The notes beneath the pieces were generated by a model that saw nothing but the letters and a program-made list of their open reading frames with translations, did not search any database and was not told where the DNA came from. A DNA stretch of 64,000 nucleotides from an uncultured Actinomycetota bacterium (GTDB lineage: Bacteria > Actinomycetota > Actinomycetes > JAFAQI01). Numbering within the stretch: the first letter of the stretch is position 1; each line of letters starts with the position of its first letter. The position numbers and the translations under genes were made by a program. Location: the NCBI GenBank assembly GCA_963789615.1, contig CAWBLI010000005.1:1454309-1518308 (forward strand), written 5' to 3'. Positions 7,351 through 43,526 of the stretch are shown piece by piece.

Positions 7351-7628
7351 TCAGCCGCCCGCGACGGCCGGGATGATCGAGACGCTCGCGCCGTCGGGCG
7401 TCGGCGTCTGGAGCCCCTCGGCGAAGCGCACGTCCTCGTCACCGACGTAGACGTTGACGAACCGCCGCAGCTTGCCGTCGTCGTCCAGCACCCGGGCCCG
7501 GATGCCGGGATGGTCGGCATCGAGGCCGTCGAGCACCTCCGCAAGCGTCCGGCGCCGGTCACGTCGACCTCGGCCGAGCCGCCGGTCAGGCCCCGCAGGA
7601 TCGTCGGGATCCGGACGCTGACGCTCAT
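7351..7628 (-). pseudogene. MoaD/ThiS-family sulfur-carrier-like protein ending in GG; frameshifted in this assembly
   Basis: N-terminus MSVSVRIPTILRGLTGGSAEVDVTGAG is in one frame; C-terminus TLAEVLDGLDADHPGIRARVLDDDGKLRRFVNVYVGDEDVRF...IIPAVAGG is in another. One base is missing in the gccgg run at about 7550-7556. Confidence 0.6.
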
Positions 7629-8921
7629 GACGCGAGCCCGGCGTCGCGGAACGCGTCGAGCGACGCCCGGATCGTGGCGGTCGGGCGGGCCACCGGCTCG
7701 ACGGCGTCCAGCGTCTTGAGCCCGTCACCGGTGTTGAGGATGACCGTCTCGGCGTCCGGGTCGAGCTGACCCGAGGCGAGCAGCTTGCGCAGCGTCGCCA
7801 CCGTCACGCCGCCCGCCGTCTCACCGAAGACGCCGGTCGTCTGGGCGAGCAGCCGGATCCCGTCGACGACCTCGTCGTCGGTGACGTCCGCAATCGCCCC
7901 ACCGGTACGACGGACGACGTCGAGCGCGTAGGGCCCGTCGGCCGGGTTGCCGATCCCGAGCGACTTGACGATCCCGCTCGGGCGCACCGGCTGGACGACG
8001 TCCTGCCCGGCCTGGAAGGCCGCCGACACCGGCGAGCAGCCGGCCGACTGCGCCCCGAAGACGGCGTACGGCGTGTCCTCGACCAGACCCAGCTTGGCGA
8101 GCTCGCGCCACGCCTTGTCGACCTTGGTGAGCAGCGATCCCGGACGCGATCGGGACGACGACCTGCTGCGGCAGCCGCCAGCCGAGCTGTTCGGCCACCT
8201 CGTAGCCCACCGTCTTCGAGCCCTCGGCGTAGAAGGGGCGGACGTTGACGTTGACGAAGGCCCACGGCAGCTCGCCGGCGACCTCGGCGCAGAGCCGGTT
8301 GACGTCGTCGTAGGAGCCCTCGACGGCGATCAGGGTCCCGCCGTACACCGCGGTCGTGATCACCTTGCCGGCCTCGAGGTCGTGCGGGATGAACACCACC
8401 GAGCGCATCCCGGACCGGGCACAGGCGGCCGCCACCGCGTTCGCGAGGTTGCCGGTCGACGCCGCCGACAGCACCGCGAAGCCCATCGCCTTGGCCGCCG
8501 AGGCAGCGACCGCCACGACCCGGTCCTTGAACGAGTGCGTGGGGTTCCCGCTGTCGTCCTTCACCCACAACGAACGCATCCCGAGCTCGGCGGCGAGCTT
8601 CTCTGCCGGCACCAGGCGCGTCATGCCGACCTGGAGGTCGACCAGCGGCGCGGCCGGCAGCAGTCCGCCGTACCGCCACATGGTGCGAGGGCCGGCTTCG
8701 ATCGAGGCGCGCGTGACCAGGCGCATCGCGGCCTCGTCGTAGCTGATCTCGAGCGGACCGAAGCACATCTCGCAGACGTGGGACGGGCCGAGGTCGTAGG
8801 TCGCGCCGCACTCGCGGCAGGCCAGGCCGGCCGCGGAGCCGAACCCGGACGTGGAGGGTCGATCGATCAACGAAGTCATGACACCAGAGCCTTCATCATC
8901 TTTCCCGCGGGCTGGGCCCAC
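7625..8921 (-). pseudogene. thrC: threonine synthase with N-terminal zinc ribbon; +1 frameshift at about 8141-8146
   Basis: ORF 7821-8921 carries CRECGATYDLGPSHVCEMC plus PLP lysine region SFKDR and reads to ...PIASG. ORF 7625-8029 carries the ThrC C-terminus QDVVQPVRPSGIVKSLGIGNPADG. The junction tccgggatcgctgctcacc has one extra base. Confidence 0.7.
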
Positions 8922-9060
8922 GGGCCGGACTTGGCACCTGCCCTCACGGGTGGTTGCCGGGGCTTCACCGGGCCGGTCCCTCTGCCCCTCTGGATGACGT
9001 GCGACCCGGAAGCCGCACCGTCTCAGTGTGTCACATGCCTCGCACGCTCAGCGCAGCGCG

Positions 9061-9681
9061 TCAGCCGGTCCAGAACCGCGTGACGACCAGGACCAGATCA
9101 GGGGAATGCAGACCGCCCTCGGACTGCGGCTCGAGGCGCTGGATCTGACCGAAATCGTGCGCGAGGTGCTCGGCCGCGGCGAGCCCGTTCGGCGGGTAGT
9201 AGACGGTCGTCTCGGCGACCCGGCCACGCAGGTTCCCGATCTGCCCCAACGGCCAGCCGCGGCTCTCGACCTCCGCGGCGACGTGATGGGCCAGCCCGTG
9301 GATCCGGGAGTTGTTCAGCACCGACACGGGGGCGAAGGCCGTGTCACTGGCGGCCGGCGACGGGCTGCTGCGCGGTGTGGCGTGATGGTGGGTGGGATGC
9401 GGGGTCGGCGTGTGGTGGGCGTGCGTGGGCACCGGCGACGGTGAGCCGACGACGGACGTCGTGTGCACGGGCGACGCGACCGGCTGGTGTGTGGCCGGCG
9501 CGACGGCCGCGTTGGAGCCGTTGCCGTTGCCATTGCGGCCGTTGATCCAGATCAGCAGGACGATGACGACGACAACGACCACGACAGCGGTCAGCGGGGC
9601 AGCCAGCCGGGTGAGCGTGCGGCGCGCGCCGCTGGGCGCCCGGTGGCTCTGCGGCCGCTCGGGCGGATACCAGTCAGCCAT
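9061..9681 (-). CDS. membrane-anchored LytR_C (cell-envelope-related attenuator C-terminal) domain protein
   Basis: TM helix AVVVVVVVIVLLIW, His/Pro/Thr-rich linker, and a C-terminal LytR_C-like region (VLNNSRIHGLAHHVAAEVESRGW...VYYPP). Confidence 0.6.
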   Translation of the reverse strand: MADWYPPERPQSHRAPSGARRTLTRLAAPLTAVVVVVVVIVLLIWINGRNGNGNGSNAAVAPATHQPVASPVHTTSVVGSPSPVPTHAHHTPTPHPTHHHATPRSSPSPAASDTAFAPVSVLNNSRIHGLAHHVAAEVESRGWPLGQIGNLRGRVAETTVYYPPNGLAAAEHLAHDFGQIQRLEPQSEGGLHSPDLVLVVTRFWTG

Positions 9682-9753
9682 CGGGACACTCGAACCACAC
9701 GACCGCGCGTTGCATCAGCCAGCCCTCCGGGCCCGGTCGGTCGTTGGTGGGGG

Positions 9754-10047
9754 TCAGACCTCGATGCCGAGGCGACGAGCGGAACGCGCGCGCTGCCGCG
9801 CTGCCCGCAGCCGGCGCAGCCGCTTGACCAGCATCGGGTCGGCGGCCAACGCCTCCGGCCGGTCGAGCAGCGCGTTGAGCACCTGGTAGTAGCGGGTGGC
9901 CGACATGTCGAACAGCTCGCGGACCGCCTGCTCCTTGGCGCCGGCGTACTTCCACCACTGGCGCTCGAAGGCCAGGATGTCGCGGTCACGGTCGGACAGC
10001 TCGCCGACCGCCGCTCCCTGGCCGGACAGTGCTCCCGCAGCACTCAT
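9754..10047 (-). CDS. DUF3263 domain protein
   Basis: LSDRDRDILAFERQWWKYAGAKEQAVRELFDMSATRYYQVLNALLD is the hallmark DUF3263 core. Start chosen at MSAAGAL. Confidence 0.55.
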   Translation of the reverse strand: MSAAGALSGQGAAVGELSDRDRDILAFERQWWKYAGAKEQAVRELFDMSATRYYQVLNALLDRPEALAADPMLVKRLRRLRAARQRARSARRLGIEV

Positions 10048-10137
10048 GGCGCACTCCAACGATTGACGTCCTCGAACTACAGCTGTGTCATTCTGGCACA
10101 TGTCGGCCACCTGACGGTGCAGGACCGGGGGCACGGA

Positions 10138-11403
10138 TCAGGGGTAGAGGCCTCGGGTGCGGTGCGCCTCGGCGACCCGGCCGACCCCGATCATCTGTGC
10201 CGCCGTACGCAGCGAGACGTCCTGCTCCTGAGCCAGGGCCGATACTTCGCCGTACGCCGACTCGAGAATCGAGGCGAGCCGGTCGTTCACCTCGGTCTCC
10301 GACCAGGCGTAGGCCTGCAGGTCCTGGACCCACTCGAAGTAGGAGACGGCGACGCCACCGGAGTTGGCGAGGATGTCCGGGACGATGATCGTGCCCTTGT
10401 CCTCGAGGACCTCGTCGGCGTCCGGCGTGGTGGGGCCGTTCGCGCCCTCGACGATGAACCTCGCCTTGATCCGGTCGGCGTTCCCGTCGTGGATGACGCT
10501 CTCCAGCGCGGCAGGCACCAGGACATCGACGTCGAGCTCGAGCAGCTCCTCGTTGGAGATGGCGTCCGTCCCGGGGTACCCGACGACCGACTCCATCCCG
10601 CCACCGCGCAGCGCGCGGAGCATCGCGGCGGGGTTCAGCCCCAGCGCGTTGTAGGCACCACCCTTGACGTCGGAGACCGCGACCACCTTGCAGCCGGCGT
10701 CGTGGAGGTACTGCGCGGCGAGGCCACCGACCTTGCCGAAGCCCTGGATCGCGACGGACGCGTCGCGAGGGTCGATGCCGGCCTCGCGCAGCGCGAGGAA
10801 TGCCGTGATCAGCACGCCGCGGCTGGTGGCGCCGCCACGCCCCTGGGAGCCGCCGATGCTCACCGGCTTGCCGGTGACGACACCGGTCACGGTGTAGCCG
10901 CGGTTCACCGAGTAGGTGTCCATGAACCACGCCATGGTCTGTTCGTCGGTGCCGACGTCAGGGGCCGGGATGTCCTTCTCCGGGCCGACGATCGGGCCGA
11001 TCTCGCTGGCGTAGCGACGGGTCACCCGTTCCAGCTCCGTCATGCTGTAGAGCCGGGGGTCGATCGTCACCCCGCCCTTCGCCCCGCCGTACGGGATCCC
11101 GATCAGTGCGCACTTCCAGGTCATCCACATCGCGAGGGCGCGCACCTCGTCGATGTCGGTCGACGGGTGGTAGCGGATGCCGCCCTTGGCCGGCCCCCGC
11201 GAGAGGTTGTGCTGCACCCGGTAGCCGCGGAGCACCTCGGTGCTGCCATCGTCCCGGCGGAGCGGGATCGAGACCGTCATCTCCCGACGGGGCGTGGCGA
11301 GCAGCTGGTGCATTCCGTCGTCGAGGCCGAGCTGCTTCACCGCCTCCGTCAGCTGGGCCTGTGCAGACTGCCACGCAGACTGGCGTGCCACCACCGTTAC
11401 CAC
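10138..11403 (-). CDS. gdhA: NAD(P)-dependent glutamate dehydrogenase
   Basis: KGGIRYHPSTDIDEVRALAMWMTWKCALIGIPYGGAKGG and the GFGKVG Rossmann motif. Start probably GTG (VVTVVARQ). Confidence 0.9.
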   Translation of the reverse strand: MVTVVARQSAWQSAQAQLTEAVKQLGLDDGMHQLLATPRREMTVSIPLRRDDGSTEVLRGYRVQHNLSRGPAKGGIRYHPSTDIDEVRALAMWMTWKCALIGIPYGGAKGGVTIDPRLYSMTELERVTRRYASEIGPIVGPEKDIPAPDVGTDEQTMAWFMDTYSVNRGYTVTGVVTGKPVSIGGSQGRGGATSRGVLITAFLALREAGIDPRDASVAIQGFGKVGGLAAQYLHDAGCKVVAVSDVKGGAYNALGLNPAAMLRALRGGGMESVVGYPGTDAISNEELLELDVDVLVPAALESVIHDGNADRIKARFIVEGANGPTTPDADEVLEDKGTIIVPDILANSGGVAVSYFEWVQDLQAYAWSETEVNDRLASILESAYGEVSALAQEQDVSLRTAAQMIGVGRVAEAHRTRGLYP

Positions 11404-11585
11404 TCCTCCGCCCCATGGGTCGCCGTTGACCGTAACTGGGGTTCGAGGCCCCATCCTGCCAGGGTTTGTGCAGGCTGCGCCGTCATGGGTGGCGGCGGAC
11501 CCTGCACAAACCGGGATTCAGGACTCCAACCGGATCCGATCCGCATGCGTCACAGTGAGTGCCGGGTATGGATGAGGAGCCGCTC

Positions 11586-12320
11586 ATGCGCATCGCTGCC
11601 GTCGCGGTGGCCTGTCTCGCCCTGGCAGGCACCGCCGTCCCGCAGCCGACAGCCGCCTCCGTCCCGCACGTCGCGAGATCGACGGATTCGCCGCGACATT
11701 GGACCTACCGCGCGGATGTGGACGGTGATGGGCATCCTGACCGCATCCGGATCACTGCGGGGTCCGACCTCAAGCCCGGTTCGTTGGGCTGGACCGGTCA
11801 TTACACAGTGAGCGTGCATCTCAGCTCGACGGGGAAAACCGTCACCCACCGACTGCACCTGGCTTACTACTTCTCGGCGTACCAACGCTTCACGCCCTGG
11901 TACGGCGCGGCACACCTCATCGGATGGCATCGGAAGCAACTCGTCCTCGGTCGTGAAAACGGCGCGCACACCGTCCTGTTCCATGTCCTGAGCCTGCGGC
12001 ACAACCGCCTGGTCAGCCTCCCCGCTCCGGCCGCGTCACGGAGCGGGTGGTTCATCAACGCGTCGTTCGGCACCGGGGAGCAGGGCTGGCGATGCGTGGC
12101 GCACGGCATCGAGTACCGCGACGTGCACCCGGTGAACGAGAAGATCACCCGCTTCCGAGTGACGCGCAGCAGCTTCGTCCGCCATGGGAGCGGTTGGAAG
12201 CGGATCCATCACTTCAGCGCCGTCGCCCCCGCGGGCAGCGGACATCAGCCGCCTCGTCGCACCCAGCGGTACGCGTCGTTCGCGTGCGCTGGCCTCCCGA
12301 GCAACCCGCGCAACTTCTGA
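11586..12320 (+). CDS. hypothetical secreted protein
   Basis: Signal peptide MRIAAVAVACLALAGTAVP. DVDGDGHPDRIRI calcium-binding-like motif. No confident family assignment. Confidence 0.45.
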   Translation: MRIAAVAVACLALAGTAVPQPTAASVPHVARSTDSPRHWTYRADVDGDGHPDRIRITAGSDLKPGSLGWTGHYTVSVHLSSTGKTVTHRLHLAYYFSAYQRFTPWYGAAHLIGWHRKQLVLGRENGAHTVLFHVLSLRHNRLVSLPAPAASRSGWFINASFGTGEQGWRCVAHGIEYRDVHPVNEKITRFRVTRSSFVRHGSGWKRIHHFSAVAPAGSGHQPPRRTQRYASFACAGLPSNPRNF

Positions 12321-12365
12321 CGGCGATCTGTGAACCGCCGCTGCTCGCCGGCGGGCAGTGGCAGT

Positions 12366-15054: not shown

Positions 15055-15127
15055 CTGCCTCCCACCGCCACGGAACGACCTTCCGGCGGTCACGGTCACA
15101 CCTCGCGGCCACAGCGGCCCTCACACT

Positions 15128-16725
15128 GTGGGGGTGGAATCCCGATCGGTCACGCGCCGCGAGGCACTCGGGATGCTCGTCGGCGCTGCTGCCGCCACCA
15201 CCCTGGCCGGATGCTCGTCGGGATCGTCCGCGACCCGGCTCGGCTCAGTCCACTGGCTCACCCGTCCGGTCCAGCGCACGCCCGGCGTCGCCGTCCGCCG
15301 CCGACTGGCGGAGCCTGGCCGGCCAGCTTCACGGCACGCTGGTCCGCCGAGGCCGGACCGGGTACGACGCAGCCCGGCTGCTGTTCAACCGCCGCTTCGA
15401 CGGCGAGCACCCGGCGGCCGTCGTACGGGTCGCGGACGCCGACGACGTGGCGACCGGGCTCGCCTTCGCCCACCGGTTCGCGCTGCCGCTGCACCTCCGC
15501 TCCGGCGGCCACTCCTACCTCGGCGCCTCGTCCGGACCCGGGCTGGTGCTGGACCTGCGGTCACTCAACGGCCTCCGAGTCGACGCCGCGGCCGGCACCG
15601 CGACGCTGGGCGCCGGGATCGCCCTGGTCGACGCGTACGACGGACTGGCGGCGCACGGTGCGGCGATCCCGGCCGGCTCGTGTCCCGACCGTCGGCCTGT
15701 CCGGCCTGACCCTGGGCGGCGGGATCGGTGTCGTCACCCGGCAGTACGGCCTGACCAGCGACCGGCTGGTCGGAGCCACCGTCGTGACCGCGACCGGCGA
15801 GACCATCACCGCCGACGCCGCGCACCACTCCGACCTGCTCTGGGCGTTGCGCGGCGGCGGGGGCAGCTTCGGCGTCGTCACGTCGTTGCGGCTGCAGACC
15901 CATCCGACGCCGTCGCTGGCCCACGCCTATCTGGTCTGGCCCTGGTCGGCGGCGGCCGAGGTGTTGGCCGCCTGGCAGCAGCAGGCGCCGCGGGCGCCGC
16001 GGGCGATGTGGTCGACCTGTCACCTGTTGGCGCCGGCGACCCGGCCGGCGCCGCCGACCGTCGTAGTCGCCGCGGTGTACGTCGGCAGCACGGCCGGGCT
16101 GAGCGAGCAGGTCGGGCGGCTGACCCAGGCGATCTCGACCCCGCCGACCACGAACTTCGTGGCGTCGGAGAGCTATCTCGACACCATGTTGCTGGAGGCC
16201 GGCTGCTCGAGCATCTCCGAGACGGCCTGCCACGTCGCCGCCGAGACACCGGGCGGGACGTTGCCGCGCGACGCGTTCGTCGCGGGGTCGGACTTCTTCA
16301 CCCGGCAGATCGGCACGGCCGGGATCGCGCGGCTGGTCCGCGCGGTCGAGACGCGGGCGGCAGACCGCCGGCTCGGTGCCGGCGGTGCGTCGTTCGACGC
16401 GCTCGGCGGGGCCGTCGACGACCTGGCTGCGGACGCATCGGCGTACGTGCATCGGGGTGCGTTGTTCGACGCGCAGTACACCGCGTCGTGGGCGGGGACG
16501 CCGGGCAACGGGCCGCTCCCGCGCAACCAGGCTTCACTGGCCTCGATTCGAGCAGCCGCAACGGATTTCGCGTCCGGCCAGTCGTATCAGAACTACCCTG
16601 ACGCCACCCTGCGCGATCCGCAGCAGGCGTACTACGGGGCCAACCTGAGCCGGCTGGTCGAGGTACGACGGACCTACGACCCCACGAGCGTTTTCACCCA
16701 GCCCCAGGGCGTCCCGCTGACCTGA
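15128..16725 (+). pseudogene. Tat-secreted FAD-linked oxidase (BBE/PCMH-type FAD-binding) with two homopolymer frameshifts
   Basis: Tat signal SRSVTRREALGMLVGAAAATTLAGCSS (frame 2). FAD domain ...VRVADADDVATGLAFAHRFALPLHLRSGGHSYLG (frame 0). BBE-like C-terminus ...GLSGLTLGGGIGVVTRQYGL...YQNYPD (frame 1). Junctions lie at about 15250-15300 and 15684, the latter an extra C in tgtcccgacc. Confidence 0.65.
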
Positions 16726-26339: not shown

Positions 26340-27090
26340 TCAGCGTCCCTGGTTCTTCACCGCGTCGATCGCGTCGGCTGCCGCCGCCGGGTCAAGGTAG
26401 GTCCCACCCTGGCTCACCGGACGTAGGTCGCCGTCGAGGTCGTAGCGCAGCGGGATCCCGGTCGGGATGTTGAGGCCCACGATGGTGTCCTCGTCGATGC
26501 CGTCGAGGTGTTTGACGAGCGCCCGCAGCGAGTTGCCGTGAGCGACGACGAGGACGGTCGCGCCGGAGCGCAGGTCCGGAACGATCGCGTCGTACCAGTA
26601 GGGCAGCAGCCGCTCGACCACGTCGGCGAGGCACTCGGTGCGGGGGACGATCTCGGGGGCTAGGGCCGCGTAACGCGCGTCGCGGGCTTGGGAGTACTGC
26701 GAGTCGTCGGCGATCGGCGGCGGCGGGGTGTCGTAGGAGCGACGCCAGGCCATGAACTGCTCGTCGCCGTACTGCTCGCGGATCGCGGCCTTGTCCTTGC
26801 CCTGCAGGTCGCCGTAGTGCCGCTCGTTGAGGCGCCAGGACCGGCGTACCGGGATCCAGTGCCGGTCCGCGACCGTCGAGCGCCGGTTGCGCCGTGTCGA
26901 TCGCCCGGCGCAGCAGCGAGGTGTGGAGCAGGTCAGGCAGCAGCGCGTGCTCGGCGAGCAGCTCGCCGGCCCGGCGCGCCTCAGCCCGGCCGGTGTCGGT
27001 GAGGCCGACGTCGACCCAGCCGGTGAACTGGTTGGTGGCGTTCCACTCGCTCTGGCCATGGCGCAGCAGCAACAACGTGCCGACGGTCAT
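26340..27090 (-). pseudogene. gpmA: 2,3-bisphosphoglycerate-dependent phosphoglycerate mutase; frameshift at about 26865
   Basis: N-terminus [23 protein letters not shown] (catalytic RHG) is in ORF 26392-27090. Remainder ...[23 protein letters not shown]...[13 protein letters not shown] is in ORF 26340-27059. Junction is the gacggtcg G-run. Confidence 0.8.
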
Positions 27091-28972: not shown

Positions 28973-29720
28973 GTGAGCAGAGGAACCGCCGTCGTCACGG
29001 GCGCCAGCAGCGGCATCGGAGCCGCCACCGCGCGACGCCTGGTGAGCGAGGGGTACGACGTCATTGCGGCTGCCCGCCGAGCCGACCGGCTCACCGCGCT
29101 GGCCGATGAGATCGGCTGCGGCGCGGTCGTGCTCGACGTCACCGACGAGAGCTCGGTGCGGGAGCTCGCGGGTGCGGTCACTGACTGCCATGTCCTGGTC
29201 AACAACGCCGGCGGCGCGTTCGGTCTCGACCCGGTGTCCGAGGCCAAGGACGACGACTGGCAGCGGATGTGGGACGTCAACGTGATGGGCACGATGCGGG
29301 TGACCCGCGCGCTGCTTCCCCAGCTCGAGGCCAGCGGCGACGGCGTGATCGTCAACCTCACCTCGACCGCGGGGTACGTCGCCTACGAGGGCGGCGGCGG
29401 GTACGTCGCCGTGAAGCACGCGGAGGTCGGCGATGACCCGGACGCTCCGGCTGGAGCTGCTGGGCAAGCCGATCCGGGTCGTCGAGGTCGCGCCCGGCAT
29501 GGTGGAGACCGAGGAGTTCACCCTCAACCGGCTGGGTGGTGACCGGGAGAAGGCGGCGGCGACGTACGCCGGTGTGCCCGGCCCGCTGTCGGCCGACGAC
29601 ATCGCGGACTGCATCGCCTGGGCCGTCACCCGGCCGTGGAACGTCAACATCGACCAGATCGTGGTCCGGCCGCGAGCCCAGGCGGCCCAGCACCGGGTCT
29701 ACCGGGAGGACCCGACATGA
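28973..29720 (+). pseudogene. short-chain dehydrogenase/reductase; frameshift at about 29428
   Basis: TGASSGIG Rossmann motif and NNAG. Catalytic region reads to ...YVAVKHAEV, then continues in another frame as MTRTLRLELLGKPIRVVEVAPGMVETE. Extra G in gaggtcggcgatg. Confidence 0.7.
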
Positions 29721-30447
29721 CGACACCGGCGTACTCCGAGCTCATCGCGGCGGTCCGCGGCGAGGGTGAGGGGATCATCGCCGCCGCCCGGCTCGGCCTC
29801 GATGCACCCGTCACCACCTGCCCCGGCTGGGACGTGGGGCGGCTGGTCCGGCACGTCAGCCGCGTCTACCAGACGGCGGAGCACGTCGTCGCGCATCGCC
29901 TCACGCAGGAGCCGGCGGAGTGGCCGGACCGGCCGAGGGCGACCCGATCGAGGTGCTCGGATCGTTGCTCGACGAGGTGGTCACGGCGCTGCGGGACGCC
30001 GACCCGGACACCGCGGTGTGGAACTGGTCGACGGTCGCCGAGCCGGTCGCCGGGTTCTGGGCGCGCCGGATGGCGCACGAGTCGTCGATCCACCGCTTCG
30101 ACGCGCAGATCGCCCACGCCATGCCGCAGCCGATCGACGCCGAGCTGGCGGCCGACGGCCTCGACGAGCTCATCGACGTACTGTCGCCGCGGATCTACTC
30201 CCGTGCGGGTGGCGGCGGTCCGGAGGGTTCCGTGCAGCTCCAGTCCTCCGACGACGGCGCGTGGTGCCTCGGGCTCGAATCCGACGCGGTGCAGCGGCTG
30301 GATGTCGTCAGGGAGCCGGACGCGAGTGCCAGTGGTACGTCGAGCACCTTGCTGCTGGCCGCCTATGGCCGGGTGCCGTGGACATCGCTGACGGTCGAGG
30401 GTGACATCGGCCTGCTCGAGCGATGGTCCGCCACCATGCAGTTCTGA
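29717..30447 (+). pseudogene. mycothiol-dependent maleylpyruvate isomerase family (MDMPI/DinB-like, TIGR03083) protein; frameshift at about 29925
   Basis: N-terminus AARLGLDAPVTTCPGWDVGRLVRHVSRVYQTAEHV is the metal-binding MDMPI N-domain. C-terminal domain continues in another frame (GPAEGDPIEVLGSLLDEVV...). One G is missing in gagtggccgga. Confidence 0.6.
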
Positions 30448-30466: not shown

Positions 30467-31624
30467 TCAGCGCGTCGCCGCGAGCAACGGCACCAGCAGT
30501 TCCCGGTCGGTGAGCGAGCCGTGATGGCCCGGCAACGACGACAGCCGTGACTCGCGTCGGCGTTGCACGACGCCGAGCTCGCCCCGCGACATCGCGAGGA
30601 CGTCACCGATCCGGCGCCGCGCCGTCGGCGTCACGATCGGTCCGAACAGCCCGGCCGCGATGGCGTCGTCGCGGGCTAGGACCCAGGCCCGCTCGCCGAG
30701 CAGCTCGGTCCAGATCGCCAGAACGTCAGCAGCAGCACCGGGTTCGCAGTGCACGTGGCGCATCCGGGGCTCGCCGGCCAGCGCGACCACGCCATTGCGA
30801 AGCGGGGAATCCGGCTCATCTGCGTCGATGGTCGCGTCGGCCGGCATGTCCGCCATGCCGTGGTCCGACGTGACGAACAACGTCGTCCCGGCCGGCAACC
30901 GAGCGGCGAGCAGCTCGACGTGGCGGTCGACCAGGCTGAGCTGGGCGTCCCAAGCGTCCGTGCTCGCGCCCCGGACATGCCCGACGAAGTCGAGCTCGGA
31001 GATGTAGGCGTACACCAGCGAACGGTGGCCACGGTCGGCGACGGAGGCCGCTATCGCGATCGCGTCGCCGGCGGTCGCGCAGCCGTAGTAGCGACCGCCG
31101 CGGAACGCCGCCCGGGTCAGCCCGGTGCCCTCGAAGGCGCGGGAGTTCGCGATGCTCACGCTGACGCCGGCGTCCGCGGCCTGCTCCCACATCGTGGGCA
31201 GCGGCTGCACCACCTCCGGGACCAGCCGGTCGCGCAGATCGTCCTTGCGCCCGACCGGCTGCCAGGCCAGCCAGTTCACGACGTTGCCCGACTCCTCGTC
31301 GTACGACGTGTAGCCGGTGATGCCGTGCTGCCCGGCGGGCACGCCAGTCGACAACGACGCCATCGAGGTGGCGGTCGTCGTCGGGAAGCCGACGGTCAGC
31401 TCGGTGCACGCCATTGATGACAGGTACGGCGCGGCGGCGGCGTGCTCGCGCATCGACAGCAGGCCGAGACCATCGACGAGCAGGACAACCGCCCGCTGGG
31501 TGGGGGCGAGCCCGAGCCGGTTCTCGCCGCCGGCGTCCATCGCGGCGAGCACCGACGGCACCACGTCGGAGATCGACGCCTCGCCGTAGCGCGGGACCGG
31601 GAACGGGGGCGTCACTGCGGTAGC
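30467..31624 (-). CDS. alkaline phosphatase/nucleotide pyrophosphatase (AlkP-core) family protein
   Basis: ...VVLLVDGLGLLSM...GFPTTTATSMASLSTG...SDHGMADMP is the type-I phosphodiesterase/nucleotide pyrophosphatase metal-site pattern. Confidence 0.65.
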   Translation of the reverse strand, partial: ATAVTPPFPVPRYGEASISDVVPSVLAAMDAGGENRLGLAPTQRAVVLLVDGLGLLSMREHAAAAPYLSSMACTELTVGFPTTTATSMASLSTGVPAGQHGITGYTSYDEESGNVVNWLAWQPVGRKDDLRDRLVPEVVQPLPTMWEQAADAGVSVSIANSRAFEGTGLTRAAFRGGRYYGCATAGDAIAIAASVADRGHRSLVYAYISELDFVGHVRGASTDAWDAQLSLVDRHVELLAARLPAGTTLFVTSDHGMADMPADATIDADEPDSPLRNGVVALAGEPRMRHVHCEPGAAADVLAIWTELLGERAWVLARDDAIAAGLFGPIVTPTARRRIGDVLAMSRGELGVVQRRRESRLSSLPGHHGSLTDRELLVPLLAATR

Positions 31625-32332
31625 CGGACCCGCAGCCGCCGGAAGCCCTTGCCCTTGTTCTCGACCTTGACGACCTCCATGCCGCGGATCTGCTTCGTCG
31701 ACGCGACATGAGTGCCGCCGTCGGCCTGGGTGTCGAGGCCCACGATGTCGACGATCCGGACCTCGGTCAGGCCGGGCGGCAGCAGGTTGGTCGCGGTCCG
31801 GATGATGTCCGGGATCGCGAACGCCTCGTCGTACGGGAGGACTGAGACGTCGATCCGACGGTCGGCGTCGATCTCCACCGCGCAGGCCGCCGCGATCGAG
31901 TCCTTGAACCCCTCCGGGACCTCGGGCAGGTTGAAGTCCATCCGGGCTTCGAGCGGCTCCATGTTGCCGCCGGTCACCAGCGCGCCGTAGTCGCGGAACA
32001 CGACGCCGGCGAGCAGGTGCAGCCCCGAGTGGGTGCGCATCAGGGCGGTACGACGGTCGTCGTCGAGAGCACCCTGCACCGACGTACCGGGCTGGGGGGA
32101 CCGGGTCGTCGTCGGCGGGGATCAGGTAGACGTCGTCGCCGGTGTGACGGGCTCCGACGATGCGGGTCTGGACGCCACCCCAGAGCAGGACCCCGTGGTC
32201 GGGCGGCTGGCCGCCGCCGCCGGGATAGAACGCGGAGCGGTCCAGGACGATGCCATCGGCGTCACTGCTGAGGACGGTTGCCTCCCAGTCGCGGAGGGTC
32301 GCGTCGGTCAGCTCTAACCGGTGGGTCGCCAC
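31612..32332 (-). pseudogene. alanyl-tRNA editing protein AlaX-like (AlaRS editing domain homolog); frameshift in a 6-G run at about 32094-32099
   Basis: N-terminal ...LELTDATLRDWEATVLSSDADGIVLDRSAFYPGGGGQPPDHGVL and C-terminal ...ALMRTHSGLHLLAGVV...GGTHVASTKQIRG lie in different frames. HxxxH and CxxxH editing-site pattern is present. Confidence 0.6.
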
Positions 32333-32946: not shown

Positions 32947-33000
32947 GCAATGTCCAGAGTACGGCGCGGAACCGCACGGACTGTGATACGTCGTAACACC

Positions 33001-33877
33001 ATGCGCAGCAGCAGGATCGCCGGTCTCGGAATCGTCGTCGGCCTAGGCCTCGCCTCGGCATGTGGGGCAGGCGACTGGGTTCCACATGGACGGCGCACGC
33101 AACGCCAGCTTCGTTGAGCCCGGGATCACCATCGGGAGCTCGGCACGCCGATGCGGTTGCCGAGGCGAGGCGGCTGGTGCGGCTGAGCCCGACGATGACC
33201 GGCGAGACCCGCATTGCTACCGCCCCCGTGAAGAGCCTGCGGCACCCCCCGTTTGCTCCCGCGGAGAGCCAGCTCGTGATCCGCCACCGGTTCTGGGTCA
33301 GCGACCGGACCCTCACCGCCACGTTCGATGCGCTGAAGAAACTGGCGCCGCACGGCACCCGGACACAAGGCGAGGGAGAGTCCGGCGACCACGGCCGGGT
33401 CACCGAACGGGACATCGAGTTCGCCGTGGTTCACCTGCCGGGCACGCTCGCCGACGCAGACCTAGACATCCAGGTCGTTCGCGACGGCCACGGGCACAGT
33501 GCCGTCGGGGCCTACGCCGAGGTGGTGCCGCAGCCCAAGCGCAGGCCGAACGAGCACGTCCCACTCTCCGTCCGCACCGTGAAACTGTTGCGGCTGAAGG
33601 ATTTTCCGTCGCGAGTCGTCAAGAGCAGGACGATCAATGGCCGTCGCGCCGCAACCCTGGTCCGCGACTTCGATGCCCTCGTGGTCAGGCCCCCCGGCGA
33701 GATGAGCTGCCCGGCCGGCACGCACGAAACCGAGGCGGTCTTCCGTTCCCACGGCCACACCTGGCGGGCGTCGTACCCGTCGTGCGACGCGTGTCCGTCA
33801 CCCGCGGCGGCCACCAGCTGCCCGATCTGGTGCCCGACCGCGCATTCACCCGGGCGTTGCATCGCGACCTCGGTTGA
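33001..33877 (+). pseudogene. hypothetical lipoprotein; signal peptide, body and tail are in three different frames
   Basis: MRSSRIAGLGIVVGLGLASACGAGDW (lipobox LASAC) in frame 1. Body roughly 270 aa in frame 0. TGA at 33875-33877 (frame 2) is embedded in the family A hairpin exactly as for two other genes, suggesting it is the true stop. Confidence 0.35.
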
Positions 33878-33930
33878 GTGTGACGCTCTGTCCCTTCCGA
33901 CCCGGGTAGTAAGGGACGGATCGTCACACT
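33874..33930. repeat. nested-hairpin repeat element, family A (copy 2)
   Basis: TGAGTGTGACG-CTCT-GTCCCTT-N14-AAGGGAC-GGAT-CGTCACACTC. The outer 10-bp stem and inner 7-bp stem match the architecture of copies at 4430 and 43537. Lies between convergent gene ends. Confidence 0.55.
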
Positions 33931-33942
33931 CGACGGGGAGGG

Positions 33943-37555: not shown

Positions 37556-37566
37556 TAGGGATTAGG

Positions 37567-38118
37567 TCAGCTGGATGCGCTGGTGGTGCGGACCGACGCG
37601 GTGACCTTCTTGGCCGGGGTACGACGAGCGGTGGCCTTCTTCGCCGTGGGGCGCTTGGCCGTGGTCTTCTTGGCGCTCGTGCGCTTCGCCGTGGTCTTCT
37701 TCGCCGGCGTCGCGGGCTTGCGGTCGTGCGTGCCGAAGGACTTGCCCGGCTTCTCGCCGCGCAGGCCGGCGACAACCTTGGCGCCGCGGGTCGCGAAGTC
37801 GTCGTACGTGCTGGACGCCTGCTTGCGGAAGTCCTCGGCCTGCTTGCGCAGCTCAACCGGCAGCGACTGGGCGCGCGACGGGAAGTCCTCGGCCTGCTTG
37901 CGCAGCACCTTGACCTGCTTGCGAAGCTCGACCGGCAGCGTCTGGGCGCGCGACGGAAGCTCCTCGGCCTGCTTGCGCAGCTCCTTCACCTGCTCCGGGA
38001 ACGACGCGACGACCTCGCGGTAGCGCTCCACGGCCAGGTCACCGGCGCCGGCAAGGGCGTACAGGGGCTTGGGGTCGAAGACGGTGATGGCGGGGATGGT
38101 GGTGCGGACGGTAGGCAT
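37567..38118 (-). CDS. heparin-binding hemagglutinin-like (HbhA family) protein with Lys/Ala-rich C-terminal repeats
   Basis: N-terminal TM-like helix, coiled-coil ELRKQAE.../ELRKQAEDFRKQA, and C-terminal KKTTAKRTSAKKTTAKRPTAKKATARRTPAKK repeats as in mycobacterial HBHA. Confidence 0.6.
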   Translation of the reverse strand: MPTVRTTIPAITVFDPKPLYALAGAGDLAVERYREVVASFPEQVKELRKQAEELPSRAQTLPVELRKQVKVLRKQAEDFPSRAQSLPVELRKQAEDFRKQASSTYDDFATRGAKVVAGLRGEKPGKSFGTHDRKPATPAKKTTAKRTSAKKTTAKRPTAKKATARRTPAKKVTASVRTTSASS

Positions 38119-38219
38119 GTAACGGACCTCCTGGGACCGGGGATGTGTCGCCGATCGCGACACAACGACTGTGCGGGTGGAGCAGCGAACGGACGGCGCC
38201 CGTTCACACGTCCCCACCG

Positions 38220-38750
38220 TTAAGGAACGACGGGACTGTCGGGACTGGACAAGACGTCGGACGCGACCGACGGGTTGCGCGGCGCGCGCCGAGCGGTTCG
38301 GGTCCGCGAGGGCTTGGTGACCTCGGTCGTGACGACCGGGGCTGCCACGGGTGACTCCACCACCGGGACCTCGCCGAGGGTGTCGGCGGCGGCCAGCGCG
38401 GCGTCGTTCTCGCGGCGATACGCCTCGTACAGCTCGAGCAGCACCTGCTTCTGCCGTTCCTGCAGGTGAGCATCCGACAACACCGCCGCTGGGACGTCGC
38501 TGTCGCCGTACCGCTCCTCCAGGATTCCCGCCTGGACGTACAACGCCTCGGCGGAGATCCGCAGCGCCTTCGCGATCTGCTGGAGGATCTCGGCACTGGG
38601 TTTGCGCAGCCCACGCTCGATCTGGCTGAGGTAGGGGTTGGACACCCCCGCGAGCTTGGCCAGCTGCCGCAGCGAGATCTGCGACGACGACCGCTGCTCG
38701 CGGATGTAGTCGCCGAGATTACGAACGTCCAGCTTGGCCACGTGATCCAC
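38220..38750 (-). CDS. XRE-family helix-turn-helix transcriptional regulator (Rv0474-like)
   Basis: QISLRQLAKLAGVSNPYLSQIERGLRKPSAEILQQIAKAL is the canonical Cro/C1 HTH. GTG start. Confidence 0.85.
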   Translation of the reverse strand: MDHVAKLDVRNLGDYIREQRSSSQISLRQLAKLAGVSNPYLSQIERGLRKPSAEILQQIAKALRISAEALYVQAGILEERYGDSDVPAAVLSDAHLQERQKQVLLELYEAYRRENDAALAAADTLGEVPVVESPVAAPVVTTEVTKPSRTRTARRAPRNPSVASDVLSSPDSPVVP

Positions 38751-38797
38751 TTTAGGGGACTGTGCTAGCTATTGCAAGCACACAGCAAGCACATCTG

Positions 38798-38812
38798 GAC
38801 GTGATCCACGTC
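38798..38812. promoter_or_regulatory. palindromic candidate operator upstream of the XRE regulator
   Basis: GACGTGATCCACGTC is a near-perfect palindrome. A related CACGTGATCCAC overlaps the GTG start at 38738-38750. The intervening region has unusually low GC. Confidence 0.35.
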
Positions 38813-38835
38813 ACTCCAGCAAGCACATAACGCGC

Positions 38836-39762
38836 TCAGGCCAGTACGGCGCGGACCTCGCCGACCGGATCGCCGTGACCCAGCACCGGCGTGGTCGCAA
38901 GCTCGTCGAAGATGGCTGCCTCGACGCCGATCCGGCGCAACGCCGCGACGAGGACCGGGACGCGCGCCCGGGCGGCGCCGTCGTCGATCTTCACCGCCAC
39001 GGCCGGGCCGTCGTCGAAGCCGACGGCATAGACGCCCTCGGCGCCGTCCTTGGCCACCAGGCCCGGTACGCCGGACATCAGCGCCGTGACGTCATGCCCA
39101 ATGCCGCCGACCAGCTCCGGATGAGCGCGCATCGCGTCGCCGCAGCGGCCGAGCCGACGGAACGACCGGGCCAGGCCGCTCAGTGTGATCGCGAACAGCG
39201 GAGCGCCGCAGCCGTCGACGGCGGTCGCAGCGACCCGGTCACCGGTCAGGTCCTCGATCGTGGCGCGCAGCGCCTGCTGCAAGGGGTGCGAGGGATCGCG
39301 GTATCCCTGGGTCGGCCAGCCGGCCGCCACGCAGGTCGCGAGCATTCCGGCGTGCTTGCCGGAGCAGTTCTGGGCGATCCGGCTCGGACCTTCACCGGCT
39401 CGCGTCATGGCGCGGCTGCTCTCGCCGTCGAGCGGCATGCCGGGGGTGTTGTCGAGGTCGCTCTCGTCGAGCCCGGCGCCGGCCAGGATCCGTCGTACCA
39501 CCGCAAGGTGCTCCGGCTGGCCGGAGTGGCTGGCGCAGACCAGGGCCAGCTGCTGGTCGTCGACGTCGAGGCCGGCGCGCAACATTCCCAACGCCTGCAA
39601 CGGCTTCACCGCGCTGCGTGGCAGCATCGGCTCGTCGGGGCGGCCGGCGGCGAAGCCGGTCGAGCCGTCGGCGAGCAGGGCGATCACGCTGCCGTGGTGA
39701 TGGCCCTCGACGAAGCCGTTGCGAACTACCTCGGCGACGACAGGCAACGATTCGGCCCCCAC
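38836..39762 (-). CDS. asparaginase (PF06089 L-asparaginase II family)
   Basis: ...RSAVKPLQALGMLRAGL...ALVCASHSGQPEHLAVV...NCSGKHAGMLATC...DGCGAP matches the Rhizobium-type asparaginase II family. Confidence 0.8.
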   Translation of the reverse strand: MGAESLPVVAEVVRNGFVEGHHHGSVIALLADGSTGFAAGRPDEPMLPRSAVKPLQALGMLRAGLDVDDQQLALVCASHSGQPEHLAVVRRILAGAGLDESDLDNTPGMPLDGESSRAMTRAGEGPSRIAQNCSGKHAGMLATCVAAGWPTQGYRDPSHPLQQALRATIEDLTGDRVAATAVDGCGAPLFAITLSGLARSFRRLGRCGDAMRAHPELVGGIGHDVTALMSGVPGLVAKDGAEGVYAVGFDDGPAVAVKIDDGAARARVPVLVAALRRIGVEAAIFDELATTPVLGHGDPVGEVRAVLA

Positions 39763-39782
39763 GCCGGCTGCGGTGGTGCTGA

Positions 39783-40359
39783 TCAGCTGCTCTCGGTGGG
39801 CAACAGGTCAGCGACGTCGGCGGTGCCGTCCTTGTAGCGGCGTCCGATCTCGGCCGTGCACGCGTCCATCACGTGCTGGACCAGGCGGCGCTTGGCCGAC
39901 AGGTCGACCTCCTCGTGCTGGAGCAGGTCGAGCACTCGGTTGAGGTCGGCATCGTCGTGTTGCGAGGGATCCGAGAGGTCGACGTCGGCGAGCATCGACT
40001 CGAGGTAGCGACGGTGCTCCTCGGACTCGGTCGGCTCGACGGTGACGTGGCGGCCCGAGGCCGTGGGGGCCGACCGGCGGCCCATCGGCGAGGATCGTAG
40101 TGAGCGAGTCGACGAGGGAGTTCGAGCCATCGCCCACGCGGCGGGCGAGCTCGGCGCGCAGGATGTCCATCCGGCCTTGCAGCAGCCGCCGCAGGTAGGA
40201 CAGGTTGGTCTCCTCCTGCTCGGCTTCGGAGCGCATCCGGCGGACGTCCTCGAGCGGGCGCTCGGTGAGGTCGTCCAGGTATCCCTCGGCCAGGATGTGG
40301 TCGATTCGGCGGTTCCCCGGGTTCGTCATGCGAGCGGCCTCCGGCTCTGTCGTCGTCAC
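39783..40359 (-). pseudogene. RsiG-like c-di-GMP-binding anti-sigma factor homolog; frameshift at about 40080-40100
   Basis: Two exact copies of the RsiG motif E-x3-S-x2-R-x3-Q-x3-D: ETNLSYLRRLLQGRMD in the N-terminal helix and EVDLSAKRRLVQHVMD in the C-terminal helix. The halves are in different frames. Confidence 0.5.
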
Positions 40360-40491
40360 CGCGCCATGGTGTCACGACACGCCGCGAACATGTCCGTGCA
40401 GATTGGCCCGAATGGCTCAACGTCCGCAAGAAATGTGCCGAAGAGATGGAAGCAGCCAGCACCAGCCCGCGCCGTCAGGAGGTCGTCGTTC

Positions 40492-43400
40492 ATGCTCAAA
40501 GGCGACCTGGCCACCACACCGCTCGCTCCGCTGCTCCTAGATCTCGCCGATGACAGTGCCACCGGGTGTCTGGTCATCGTCGAGGACAGCGGCGACGGTG
40601 ACGAGGCGCAGCTCTACCTCAAGCAGGGTCTGGTCTACGCCGTACAGGTCCCAGGACGGCGCCCCCAGCTCGGCTCGAAGCTCGTCTCCTCCGGCGCCCT
40701 AGCGCCCGAGGCGCTCGCCGATGCGCTCGAAGCGCAGCGGACCGAGCTGCAGGGCTGGCGCCTCGGCGAGCTGCTGGTCCACCTCGGGTACGTCGAACAG
40801 TCCGTCGTCGAGGCGTTCGTCCGCGAACAGGTCGACGACGCGATGTGGGACCTGATGCGCTGGCACAACGGCCGGTGGAGGTTCCGCAAGAACACGAAGA
40901 CCCGCGAGGACGTCGCCTCTCCGATGGAGGTCGTCGCCCTGCTGTCGAAGCTGCGGGAACGCGGCTACGAGTGGGAGACCATCTCCGCGGTCGTCCACGG
41001 GCCGGCCGCGGTGCCGGTGCTCTCGACGCGCGGCAACGCTGACGCCGAGATGACCCTCGACCCCGACGCCTGGTCGATGCTGTGCAAGATCGACGGCGAG
41101 CGCTCGGTCGCCGACCTGGCCCGCGATTGCGGTTACACGCTTGTTCGAGGCCGGTCACGTCATCGTGAGCCTGGTCCACGCCGGCTTGGTCGACATCGAG
41201 GAAGACGTCGACGTCGCCGGAGGGTGCGGCGTACGGCGCCAGCACGCTGTCGGCTGCCTGGCGCGACAACGCCGAGTCGGCGGAGACCGGTCGAGGTTGG
41301 TACGACGAGCCACAACGGCAACGGTCACGGCGAGCTCGGCGCAAGCGACGACGCCGAAGGCGACGCGCTCTCCCGGCTGGCCCGGCTCGTCACGGAGGTG
41401 GCGGGCGGGCCCGCAGTCTACCGAAGCGGCAGAGGCCGAACCGCTGGCAACCCAGCGAGGTTCTGGACGGTCCGGACTGGCACTCGATGAGCGAGACGGA
41501 CGACTCCTTCGCCGTTGCGCTGGCTCGGGTTTCATCAGCTCTGACCGAGGTACTGGGCCCCGCCAACGGCGAGAGCGATCCCTTCGACGTACCTGGCAAC
41601 ACTTCGCCTCCGCCGGCGTGAGTCCGAGCCCGACCCCGAGTGGGACCGACGCGCGAAGCTTCGCTCGGCGGCAGCCGCCGAGCTGGCGGCCGCACATGCG
41701 CTGGCCGAAGCGCTTCGGCCGCAGGACGAGGGCGAGCAGGAGCAGGCCGAGGCCGAAGGCGACGTCATCCACCTGGCTCCGAGCGAGGCCGAGCTCGCCG
41801 AGCGGAGGCGGCCGCTGAAGAGCAGGCTCGTCTTGAGGCCGAAGCGGAGGCTCGGCTGGAGGCCGAAGCGGAAGCTGCACGCCTCGAAGCGGAAGCAGAA
41901 GCTGCCCGGCTCGAAGCCGAAGCGGAAGCTGCACGTCTCGCCGCCGACGAAGAAGCCGCCCGGCTCGAAGCCGAAGCGGAAGCTGCACGGCTCGAAGCCG
42001 AAGGAGAGGCCGCCAGGCTCGCAGCCGAGGCAGAAGCTGCGCGGCTGGAGGCCGAAGCGGAGGCTGCACGCCTCGCCGCCGAAGACGAAGCCGCCCGGCT
42101 CGAAGCCGAAGCGGAAGCTGCACGCGTCGCCGCCGAAGCCGAGGAGAAGGCCCGGCTCGAGGCCGAAGCCGAGGCCGCACGCGTCGCCGCCGAAGCCGAA
42201 GAGAGGCCGCTCAGGCGGAAGCCGAAGCGGAGGCTGCACGCTCGCCGCCGAAGAAGAGGCCGCACGGCTCGCCGCCGAAGAGGAAGCGCACGGCTCGAAG
42301 CCGAAGAAGAGGCCGCCCGGCTCGCCGCTGAGGAAGAAGCCGCCCGGCTCGAAGCCGAAGCCGAAGCCGCAGGCTGGCTGCCGAGGAAGAAGCCGCCCGG
42401 CTCGCCGCGGACGAAGAAGCCGCCCGGCTCGCCGCTGAGGAAGAGGCAGCACGGCTGGCCGCTGAGGAGCAGGCACAGCTCGAGGCCGAGGCCGAAGCCG
42501 CCCGTGTCGCGGCAGAGGAGCAGGCCCAACTCGAAGCCGAAGCCGAAGCCGCACGCCTGGCCGCCGAGGAAGCGGCTCGCCTCGAAGCAGAGGCCGCTCA
42601 GTTGGCCGCAGACGAGCAAGCACGGCTCGACGCCGAAGCTGAGGCCGCGCGCCTCGAGGCCGAGGCCGAGGCTGAAGCCGAAGCCGCACGCCTGGCCGCG
42701 GAAGAGCAGGCACACCTCGAGGCCGAGGCCGAGGCCGCACGCCTGGCCGAAGCGAGGAGCAGGCACGCCTCGAGGCCGAGGCCGAAGCCGCACGGGCGGC
42801 TGCCGACGAGGCAAGCTCGGGTCGAGGCCGAAGCGGAAGCCGCACGCCTTGCCACCGAAGCTCAAGAGGAGGCCGCTCGCCTTGCCTCCGAGGAGGAGGC
42901 TGCTCGCCTTGCCGTCGAGGAGGCCGAGGCTCGCCTCGCCGCCGAGGAGCAGGCCCGACTTGTCGCGGAGGCCGAGGCGGCGCAACTCGCCGCTGAGGCG
43001 GACACGGCTCGGACGCCGTCGAGGAAGCCGAAGCTCGTCAGCTCGCCGAGCGGGAGTTCGCCCAGCTCGCAGCGGACGACACTCCCTATGTGCAGGCGCC
43101 GGCTGCCGGGTTCAGCGGGGCCGATGAAGAGGCCGCTCGCCTCGCAGACGAGGCGCAGATCGCCCAGCTCGCCGAGATCGCGCTCGACAGAGTGAGTCGG
43201 ACTTCAGCGCCGCGCAAGCAGCCGCCCTGCTGGTCGAGCTGTCCGCGGAACCAGTGACGGGCTACATGCCTCAGTCATCGTCGAATGACGATTACATGAC
43301 GCCTCGCGATGACGACGACGAGGACGACGACATCTATCCCAGACAGCAGGGCGGCGAGAACAAAGCGGATACCGCGGCCCTGTTGCGCGAGCTTTCGTCG

Positions 43401-43526
43401 CTAGGCACCGAGGAGAACAACGGGGACGCACCAGGTCCGCCGACTCCGCCGCGGCCCCAGCAGCAACGCCCCAACGCCGCGAACGACAAGAAGCAGCGCA
43501 AGAAGATCGGCCTCTTCGGCCTGTAG
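40492..43526 (+). pseudogene. DUF4388 (PatA-like N-domain) protein with giant Ala/Glu-rich coiled-coil repeat region and acidic/basic C-terminal tail; multiply frameshifted
   Basis: MLKGDLATTPLAPLLLDLADDSATGCLVIV...WDLMRWHNGRWRF is the DUF4388 domain. More than 40 copies of ARLEAEAEA follow. C-terminus DDDDEDDDIYPRQQ...KKQRKKIGLFGL. The reading frame changes at least 4 times (41148, about 42200, about 42780, about 43200). Confidence 0.5.
41820..43050 (+). repeat. 27-bp tandem repeat (about 45 units) encoding (A-R-L-E-A-E-A-E-A)n
   Basis: Unit consensus gaagccgaagcggaagctgcacgcctc with synonymous and conservative variation. Internal to the DUF4388 protein. Confidence 0.8.

Follow-up and report, generated by a model that had tools for sequence, protein, structure and literature searches.

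The single-base insertions and deletions that split genes in the window (the whole 64-kb stretch of DNA analysed, 71% GC, from the public assembly of an uncultured, Mycobacteriales/Frankiales-like soil actinobacterium; coordinates are in window numbering) are very probably errors of the assembly consensus, with each affected gene intact in the organism. The nearest comparators, two Logan contigs from the independent run ERR10755945 (L113, 99.32% identity; L114, 99.36% identity), provide same-species evidence for the PAP2 and lipoprotein genes only, about 2.9 kb; over this length they differ from the window by eight indel events and 11 substitutions, and the four coding frameshifts of this part of the window, together with four further indels, are all missing from them. 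Strains normally differ from one another mainly by substitutions.

Frameshifts in eleven genes

Orthologs were compared with the window by tblastn and with a custom frameshift-aware protein–DNA aligner, written because a frame plot of third-codon-position GC missed sites (two of the three lipoprotein frameshifts went undetected, and the frames of the Ala/Glu repeat were not separable). After L113 and L114, the next comparators were L002, L011, and L116 (89–95% identity), followed by more distant relatives. Where a reference ORF ran from stop to stop, aligner events close to its 5' end were not counted as frameshifts; those at 6292, 10120, 14166, 27689, 39766, and 44535, for example, are located upstream of a start codon or within opposite-strand shadow ORFs, as are the stops that the aligner reported. 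Also rejected were a candidate from the GC frame plot at 49678, where translation gives an uninterrupted anti-sigma ORF with RmlC after it, and the use of L001 as a reference, since the genes called in it are themselves out-of-frame nonsense (e.g., a 548-aa 'FAD oxidase'); L001 was kept only as an example of a damaged assembly.

All 11 genes named as broken in the initial annotation are interrupted by ±1-base frameshifts, including the PAP2 gene, which had been listed as probable. At least 22 events were found, probably 26–28, insertions being commoner than deletions. The sites agree with the positions first given to within about 10–35 nt. Genes and frameshifts are as follows.

7351–7628, minus strand: MoaD/ThiS-like sulfur-carrier gene; −1 at about 7549
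7625–8879, minus strand: ThrC-like PLP enzyme gene; +1 at about 8139–8141
15120–16725, plus strand: secreted FAD-binding oxidase gene; +1 at about 15221–15250, +1 at 15684
26340–27090, minus strand: gpmA phosphoglycerate mutase gene; +1 at 26874
28973–29720, plus strand: short-chain dehydrogenase (SDR) gene; +1 at 29429
29717–30447, plus strand: MDMPI-family gene; −1 at about 29935–29937
31612–32332, minus strand: AlaX-like tRNA-editing gene; +1 at 32092 (plus-strand C)
33001–33877, plus strand: lipoprotein gene; +A at 33074, +G at 33138, −G at 33792
32955–33942, no strand: indels beside or outside the lipoprotein coding sequence; +C at 32955, −T at 32978, +2 at 33939–33942
39783–40329, minus strand: RsiG-like anti-sigma gene; +1 at about 40056
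40492–43526, plus strand: DUF4388 protein gene, product of about 1010 aa that includes a repeat region rich in Ala and Glu; multiple frameshifts, at 41140 and at about 41219, 41290, 41404–41480, 41590, 41805, 42201, 42240–42290, 42372, 42752, 42814, 43012, and 43154–43189
55386–56020, plus strand: PAP2 phosphatase gene; −1 at 55454

As first proposed, both parts of each broken gene are conserved in shifted frames: they correspond to consecutive residues of intact orthologs in tblastn and frameshift-aware alignments, and each merged translation yields one full-length Pfam match that spans the junction. In the MoaD/ThiS-like gene, frameshift-aware alignment with three orthologs places the −1 event at 7546–7549, where L011 (94.7% nucleotide identity) reads GCCGGCACG and the window GCCG-GACG; the merged protein matches Pfam ThiS over positions 1–76 of 76. 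Residues 10–253 of three orthologs of the ThrC-like enzyme lie in frame −3 and residues 253–422 in frame −1, the window reading TCCGGGATCG at about 8141 and six relatives TCC-GGCTCG; the merged protein covers PALP 2–295 of 295. The TAT/lipobox signal, the N-terminal FAD_binding_4 part, and the C-terminal part of the FAD oxidase occupy three different frames, with two +1 events relative to L013 and L061, and at 15684 the window has TGTCCCGACCGTC against TGCCCGACG-GTG in L013.

For gpmA, the window reads GACGGTCG at 26874 and three relatives GAC-GTCG; the merged protein is 249 aa with 100% coverage, the length of nearly all its closest homologs. In the SDR gene, residues 1–152 of L002 stop at 29428 and residues 153–247 begin at 29430 (window GTCGGCG, L002 GTC-GCG), and in the MDMPI gene residues 1–73 and 74–243 of L002 share one base at 29935, the window reading GGCC-GAGG at about 29936 and relatives GCCCGAGG or GCCGGAGG. 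The AlaX-like gene switches between frames −1 and −2 at L002 residue 79; the RsiG-like gene passes from frame −2 to −3 at about 40056 relative to three orthologs (L105, L103, L099), and its merged product matches Pfam RsiG with 117 bits in two stretches. At 55454, L113 reads GGTCTCCTCGCG and the window GGTCT-CTCGCG, the sole gap over 1177 nt, and the PAP2 product of L113 is intact at 211 aa.

The lipoprotein gene had been described as broken at about 33075; a frameshift does lie at 33074, as one of three. All three are absent from L114, whose product is intact (308 aa) and whose alignment with the window has seven gap openings and four mismatches in 1.72 kb; a second Logan contig (run ERR11571140) gives the same 308-aa gene call. 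Repeated frameshifting of the DUF4388 gene was borne out, with 41140 joined by at least eight more frameshifts, probably 12–14. Three-frame translation and a codon-usage dynamic programme were added for this gene; the programme gives about 15 events, and protein-guided alignment with L104, L094, and L103 gives 9–13, with no stops relative to L104 and L094 and one relative to L103. The corrected N-terminal 435 aa align with intact JGI proteins over 96–97% of their length, and the gene is a single ORF in relatives.

Frameshift density is very uneven, a point against consensus error: 13–15 within a 2.1-kb part of the DUF4388 gene, three in the 0.9-kb lipoprotein gene, one only between 44 and 64 kb, and none in the window's genes for GroEL, CysS, MshA, and a 2.7-kb histidine kinase. 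The two hot spots may represent locally poor consensus, arising from low coverage or from mixed strains.

Sequence context of the indels

The initial annotation had placed the junctions in G- or C-runs. Under that reading the platform miscounts such runs and the indels are homopolymer-length miscalls within them, which we regard as unlikely. A change of run length by one base is compatible with the events at 26874 and 29429 (G to GG), and at 55454 (CC to C) and 33792 (GG to G), the last two altering 2-base runs; it is possibly compatible with those at 8141, 15684, and 29936. The break in the AlaX-like gene adjoins a 6-base run, to which it had been ascribed. However, where close comparators fix the altered base, about half of the indels have no adjoining identical base. 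At sites with comparators of at least 94.7% identity, no link to a homopolymer was found at 33074 (+A), 33138 (+G), 32092 (+C), or 7549: the three inserted bases are flanked by different bases, as are the bases deleted at 7549 and 32978. At 32092, L116 (95.4% identity) reads GGG-TGGTGGG and the window GGGCTGGGGGG, so the length of the 6-G run at 32094–32099 is unchanged and the extra base lies beside it.

The window as a whole argues in the same direction. It holds 11 runs of at least six bases, with a frameshift near one of them and the other ten unaffected; no frameshift lies within a run of four or more bases, and the indels were not enriched in homopolymer runs above chance. In sequence of 71% GC, 51% of insertions placed at random would fall next to the same base, so run extension at that rate is what chance gives. 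The run-length spectrum of the window agrees with that of short-read relatives, and no shared sequence motif (a possible methylation context) was seen by eye at the indel sites. Errors of pyrosequencing, Ion Torrent, and early Nanopore sequencing concentrate in runs of about 4–5 bases or more; they share with the present case single-base length changes that lead to frameshifts, but none of the resolved frameshifts in the window sits in a run of that length. On these comparisons the errors are best described as generic ±1 indels, scattered, rather than homopolymer-length errors. Since about half of them lie outside runs and they are concentrated in few genes, homopolymer-aware correction alone would be insufficient for this assembly.

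Consensus error and gene decay

That the frameshifts are real, through recent gene decay or an indel-prone mutator, so that the broken genes are true pseudogenes, is very improbable. The public deposition does contain the indels, and their clustering in probably dispensable genes (DUF4388, lipoprotein) resembles what follows gene death. Mycobacterium leprae, whose genome has undergone reductive evolution, has accumulated true pseudogenes, and the window resembles it in having many frameshifted genes in one locus, some hit repeatedly; unlike it, the window has no accompanying stops, deletions, insertion elements, or relaxed selection, and intact alleles exist at 99.3% identity. Alongside at least 22 frameshifts, the genes with a comparator showed no in-frame stops, except the single DUF4388 stop relative to L103, and neither large deletions nor insertion elements. 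Downstream of four frameshifts dN/dS is 0.08–0.18 (0.098 for downstream gpmA), unchanged from the 0.04–0.15 of nine of the ten intact control genes measured with the same relative as reference; purifying selection on the broken genes persists. Decay would moreover have struck gpmA and alaX, with indels about as frequent as substitutions against the intact 99.3% contigs.

The more distant comparators agree: at about 95% identity, the indel at 7549 is absent from L011 and that at 32092 from L116, and at every other site the genes are uninterrupted in L002, L011, L116, and more distant relatives. Comparison with orthologs, one of the checks first suggested, shows uninterrupted genes at the sites, and the preference for sequencing or assembly error over pseudogenisation is strongly supported by the intact contigs, the unchanged dN/dS, and the lack of nonsense codons. 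Another large-contig relative, L001 (ENA contig_20299, 3.57 Mb), carries the same type of damage, at least eight of 17 genes being broken, at positions that differ from those in the window.

We give still less credence to a very recent burst of indel mutation, or locus-specific hypermutation, in this lineage that would make all the frameshifts real, or at any rate those of the dense DUF4388 and lipoprotein clusters; in that case the intact alleles found elsewhere would belong to sister strains. Programmed ribosomal frameshifting or slipped-strand phase variation, for which the ±1 frame changes themselves are the only support, can be dismissed, as orthologs at 75–99% identity are single-frame for every gene, the junctions have no repeat tract or long run, and the genes affected, which are unrelated to one another, show changes of either sign (+1 and −1).

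Under consensus error, residual ±1 errors concentrated in a few stretches would shift the reading frames. They would have arisen in a consensus built from long reads, probably a lightly polished Nanopore-only assembly: for an uncultured organism from soil, a contig of megabase scale (1,891,829 nt) implies that long reads were used. Many GTDB relatives are Microflora Danica MAGs, which are Nanopore-only assemblies produced by Flye with a single round of Medaka; their authors inspected them for Nanopore-associated errors (PMC12313526). The indel errors of Nanopore-only MAGs (PMC12313526, PMC9262707) are alike in the megabase contig, the uncultured soil source, the splitting of conserved genes by ±1 indels, and the intact alleles in independent assemblies, and MAGs of that project are among the closest genomes. 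Unlike in those reports, which stress long homopolymers and low GC, the window has 71% GC, its indels are mostly outside runs, and its errors pile up in two genes.

The ThrC-like gene pair and the annotation

The indels are almost certainly consensus errors, so the genes are to be read as intact; the view that annotation must merge frames holds along with the artefact reading. As an ordinary artefact, the frameshifts matter for annotation and not for biology. The public record already holds at least one truncated out-of-frame product, the 332-aa 'DUF4388' protein P0150, which NCBI and ENA place on the 1,891,829-nt contig and which is 100% identical to the uncorrected out-of-frame ORF at 40492–41487. 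Pathway reconstruction from this genome would wrongly call glycolysis (gpmA) and a methionine route broken.

Damage to essential genes had been put forward as an argument for error. It is valid for gpmA and weak for thrC, whose neighbourhood contains a further feature.

8893–9000, minus strand: SAM riboswitch, unbroken; Rfam RF00162, 83.5 bits, model positions 1–108 of 108

This riboswitch lies directly upstream of the ThrC-like gene, which is translationally coupled to the ThiS-like gene through overlapping stop and start codons, so that PALP (ThrC-like) and ThiS (sulfur carrier) domains are encoded by adjacent genes. Because of the SAM riboswitch and the coupled ThiS-like gene, MetM/MetO fits better than threonine synthase: judged by gene context, 'thrC' is probably MetM and the MoaD/ThiS-like gene MetO, which would act in the thiocarboxylate pathway of homocysteine synthesis. 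MetM is often misannotated as threonine synthase (GapMind 2026 preprint). NCBIfam still scores the merged ThrC-like enzyme as thrC (TIGR00260, 245 bits).

Frameshifted genes

The window has a GC content of 71% along its whole length and carries typical actinobacterial housekeeping genes (GroEL, CarD, IspF, CysS, MshA, and RmlABCD, among others). At many places the coding signal switches frame on the same strand with no stop codon, as seen in the plot of GC at third codon positions and in stop-to-stop ORFs. Comparators were L002 (short-read MAG contig, 89% identical, spanning 18.1–33.6 kb, all genes intact); L011 (JGI contig, 94.7% identical, spanning 4.5–7.6 kb); GTDB relatives for the ThrC-like gene region; JGI metagenome contigs for the DUF4388 gene region; and same-species contigs, added later. 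A purpose-written protein-versus-DNA aligner permitting ±1 frameshifts was run with every usable reference ORF.

Frameshifts by gene. +1, one extra base; −1, one missing base in the window relative to intact orthologs. Sites are from frameshift-aware protein–DNA alignment, except PAP2 (contig of a 98%-identical 211-aa homolog, found by homolog search).
ThiS/MoaD-like: −1 at 7549
ThrC-like: +1 at 8141
FAD oxidase: +1 at about 15221–15250; +1 at 15684
gpmA: +1 at 26874
SDR: +1 at 29429
MDMPI: −1 at 29936
alaX-like: +1 at 32092
Lipoprotein: +1 at 33074; +1 at 33138; −1 at 33792
RsiG-like: +1 at 40056
DUF4388: +1 at 41140 and many others
PAP2: −1 (one C) at 55454

The gene list of the initial annotation was accurate, and the frameshifts are present in the sequence in all 11 genes: orthologous proteins map to the window in at least two frames with consecutive residue ranges, the aligner places the shifts, and the merged translations match single Pfam models at full length across the junctions (PALP, 2–295 of 295; ThiS, 1–76 of 76), with good matches also to RsiG, DUF4388, FAD_binding_4, and PAP2. 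Its second FAD oxidase site and its merely probable PAP2 frameshift were both borne out, and gpmA stands as an essential gene that was struck; merged GpmA has 249 aa, and nearly all of its closest homologs are equally long, with 100% coverage. The TAT/lipobox signal peptide of the FAD oxidase lies in a third frame.

Assembly error or gene decay

The frameshifts are very probably assembly errors, as the initial annotation had read them; five lines agree, namely same-species contigs, dN/dS, lesion type, a public protein, and a related contig. Two Logan contigs (run ERR10755945), with 99.32% and 99.36% identity to the window, have intact PAP2 and lipoprotein genes, and a second run (ERR11571140) gives the same intact 308-aa lipoprotein gene call. 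Over 2.9 kb, window and Logan contigs differ by 11 substitutions and eight indel events; the lipoprotein contig alone shows seven gap openings and four mismatches. Because close strains differ chiefly by substitutions, so indel-dominated a difference at 99.3% identity points to an error on one side of the comparison, and it is the window that has the broken genes.

Downstream of four frameshifts dN/dS is 0.08–0.18 (Nei–Gojobori, against L002), and in nine of ten intact control genes it is 0.04–0.15; the supposedly untranslated gene halves are without drift. Among at least 22 frameshifts, the frameshift-aware alignments revealed neither an in-frame stop nor any larger lesion in the genes for which a comparator was at hand. 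Neutral decay should, by our own informal estimate, also add nonsense codons. True decay of the hit genes would also produce the repeated hits seen in dispensable genes and so retains a small probability; the indel cluster of the lipoprotein, however, is absent from the same-species contigs in direct comparison.

The public protein P0150 (NCBI and ENA, DUF4388-type, 332 aa, on a 1,891,829-nt contig) is identical at 332 of 332 residues to the uncorrected out-of-frame ORF 40492–41487 (+) of the window; being this truncated out-of-frame ORF, it indicates that the source genome was deposited with annotation already affected. The window thus stems from a publicly deposited assembly, and contigs of megabase size for an uncultured lineage of soil imply long reads. 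The nearest genomes include many Microflora Danica MAGs, which were assembled from Nanopore reads only with Flye and one Medaka polishing round, and were inspected by their authors for Nanopore-associated errors (PMC12313526). The related contig L001 (ENA ERZ25039522 contig_20299, 3.57 Mb; identity to the window, 88%) is more fragmented than the window, at other positions, with at least eight of 17 genes in L001:1–20483 broken relative to L002. Within about 6 nt of FAD oxidase site 15684 it carries a +1 insertion of its own; this near-coincidence may be chance or context-specific error. The frameshifts are an ordinary data-quality artefact and matter only to annotation and to the way in which the assembly ought to be polished.

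Sequence context and density of the errors

A homopolymer mechanism is not supported. The initial annotation had placed the junctions in G or C runs; about half of the resolved indels lie off runs. Against comparators of about 95–99% identity, the inserted A at 33074 (between G and C), G at 33138 (between A and C), and C at 32092 (between G and T) extend no run, and the deletions at 7549 and 32978 contract none. Among sites with the base fixed by a close comparator, a run is altered only at 55454, 33792, and 32955, each time by one base in a run of at most two. The six-base run at alaX, the only run of that length to which the initial annotation tied an indel, has equal length in the window and in L116 (95.4% identical relative), the extra base lying two positions outside it. 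Ten of the window's 11 runs of at least six bases are untouched, and the run-length spectrum agrees with that of short-read relatives. With 41.5% of bases in runs of at least two, a random insertion extends an identical neighbor 51% of the time (computed for this composition), so the observed run association is at chance level.

Error density is uneven. GroEL, CysS, thiolase, MshA, and a 2.7-kb histidine kinase are without frameshifts, and 44–64 kb is almost entirely clean. The DUF4388 gene has 9–13 frameshifts by conservative protein-guided alignment and about 15 by a codon-usage dynamic programme; five to six of the latter fall in an acidic linker free of repeats, and there the sequence, once corrected, can be aligned to intact JGI proteins over 96–97% of its length. 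The three lipoprotein frameshifts are accompanied by four further indels beside the gene; those outside or at the edge of the coding sequence within 32955–33942 lie at 32955, 32978, and 33939–33942, so frameshift counts underestimate the local error rate. As a guess, these hot spots might stem from locally low coverage or from a consensus confounded by mixed strains.

The architecture of the DUF4388 protein (40492–43526) is kept in the related loci L094, L103, and L104: DUF4388 domain, acidic linker, Ala/Glu/Arg-rich repeats of several hundred residues, and C-terminal tail (ADTAALLRELSSLG...KKRGLFG). The name "FtsK/SpoIIIE-like" of one JGI homolog is probably a low-complexity naming artefact. 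The divergent RsiG-like gene adjoins the repeat protein (39783–43526), a pairing kept in the relatives L105, L103, and L099; by eye, its product has both E-x3-S-x2-R-x3-Q-x3-D motifs, which in Streptomyces RsiG bind c-di-GMP.

ThrC-like/ThiS-like pair and other loci

Features of the pair and of the remaining loci.
6527–6688 (+): c-di-AMP (ydaO-type) riboswitch
6663–7265: NlpC/P60 cell-wall hydrolase gene
7351–9000 (−): ThrC-like/ThiS-like pair
8893–9000 (−): full-length SAM riboswitch
54353–55381 (+) and 58930–60288 (+): secreted proteins

The SAM riboswitch precedes the ThrC-like gene, which starts 14 nt downstream, and the ThrC-like reading frame ends in a stop codon that overlaps the ThiS/MoaD-like start codon. 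MetM/MetO, the thiocarboxylate-dependent homocysteine synthase, is described as a ThrC homolog with a sulfur carrier, the same pairing as here. According to a preprint (GapMind 2026), annotations frequently mistake MetM for threonine synthase. The pair is probably a MetM/MetO homocysteine-synthesis operon, not threonine synthase and a molybdopterin gene; since NCBIfam still scores the ThrC-like protein as thrC, the reassignment is probable, not proven. The riboswitch and the overlapping ThiS-like gene favor MetM/MetO, and the reassignment removes the earlier argument from threonine auxotrophy.

The c-di-AMP riboswitch lies upstream of the NlpC/P60 hydrolase gene, which has an in-frame 24-nt length difference from a 94.7%-identical relative. 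The two secreted proteins look paralogous, with an N-terminal segment in common (…VVLYDRDD…/…EIVAYEPAQ…) and Thr/Gly-rich tails; both genes lie within a cell-wall polysaccharide cluster (rmlABCD and several glycosyltransferases).
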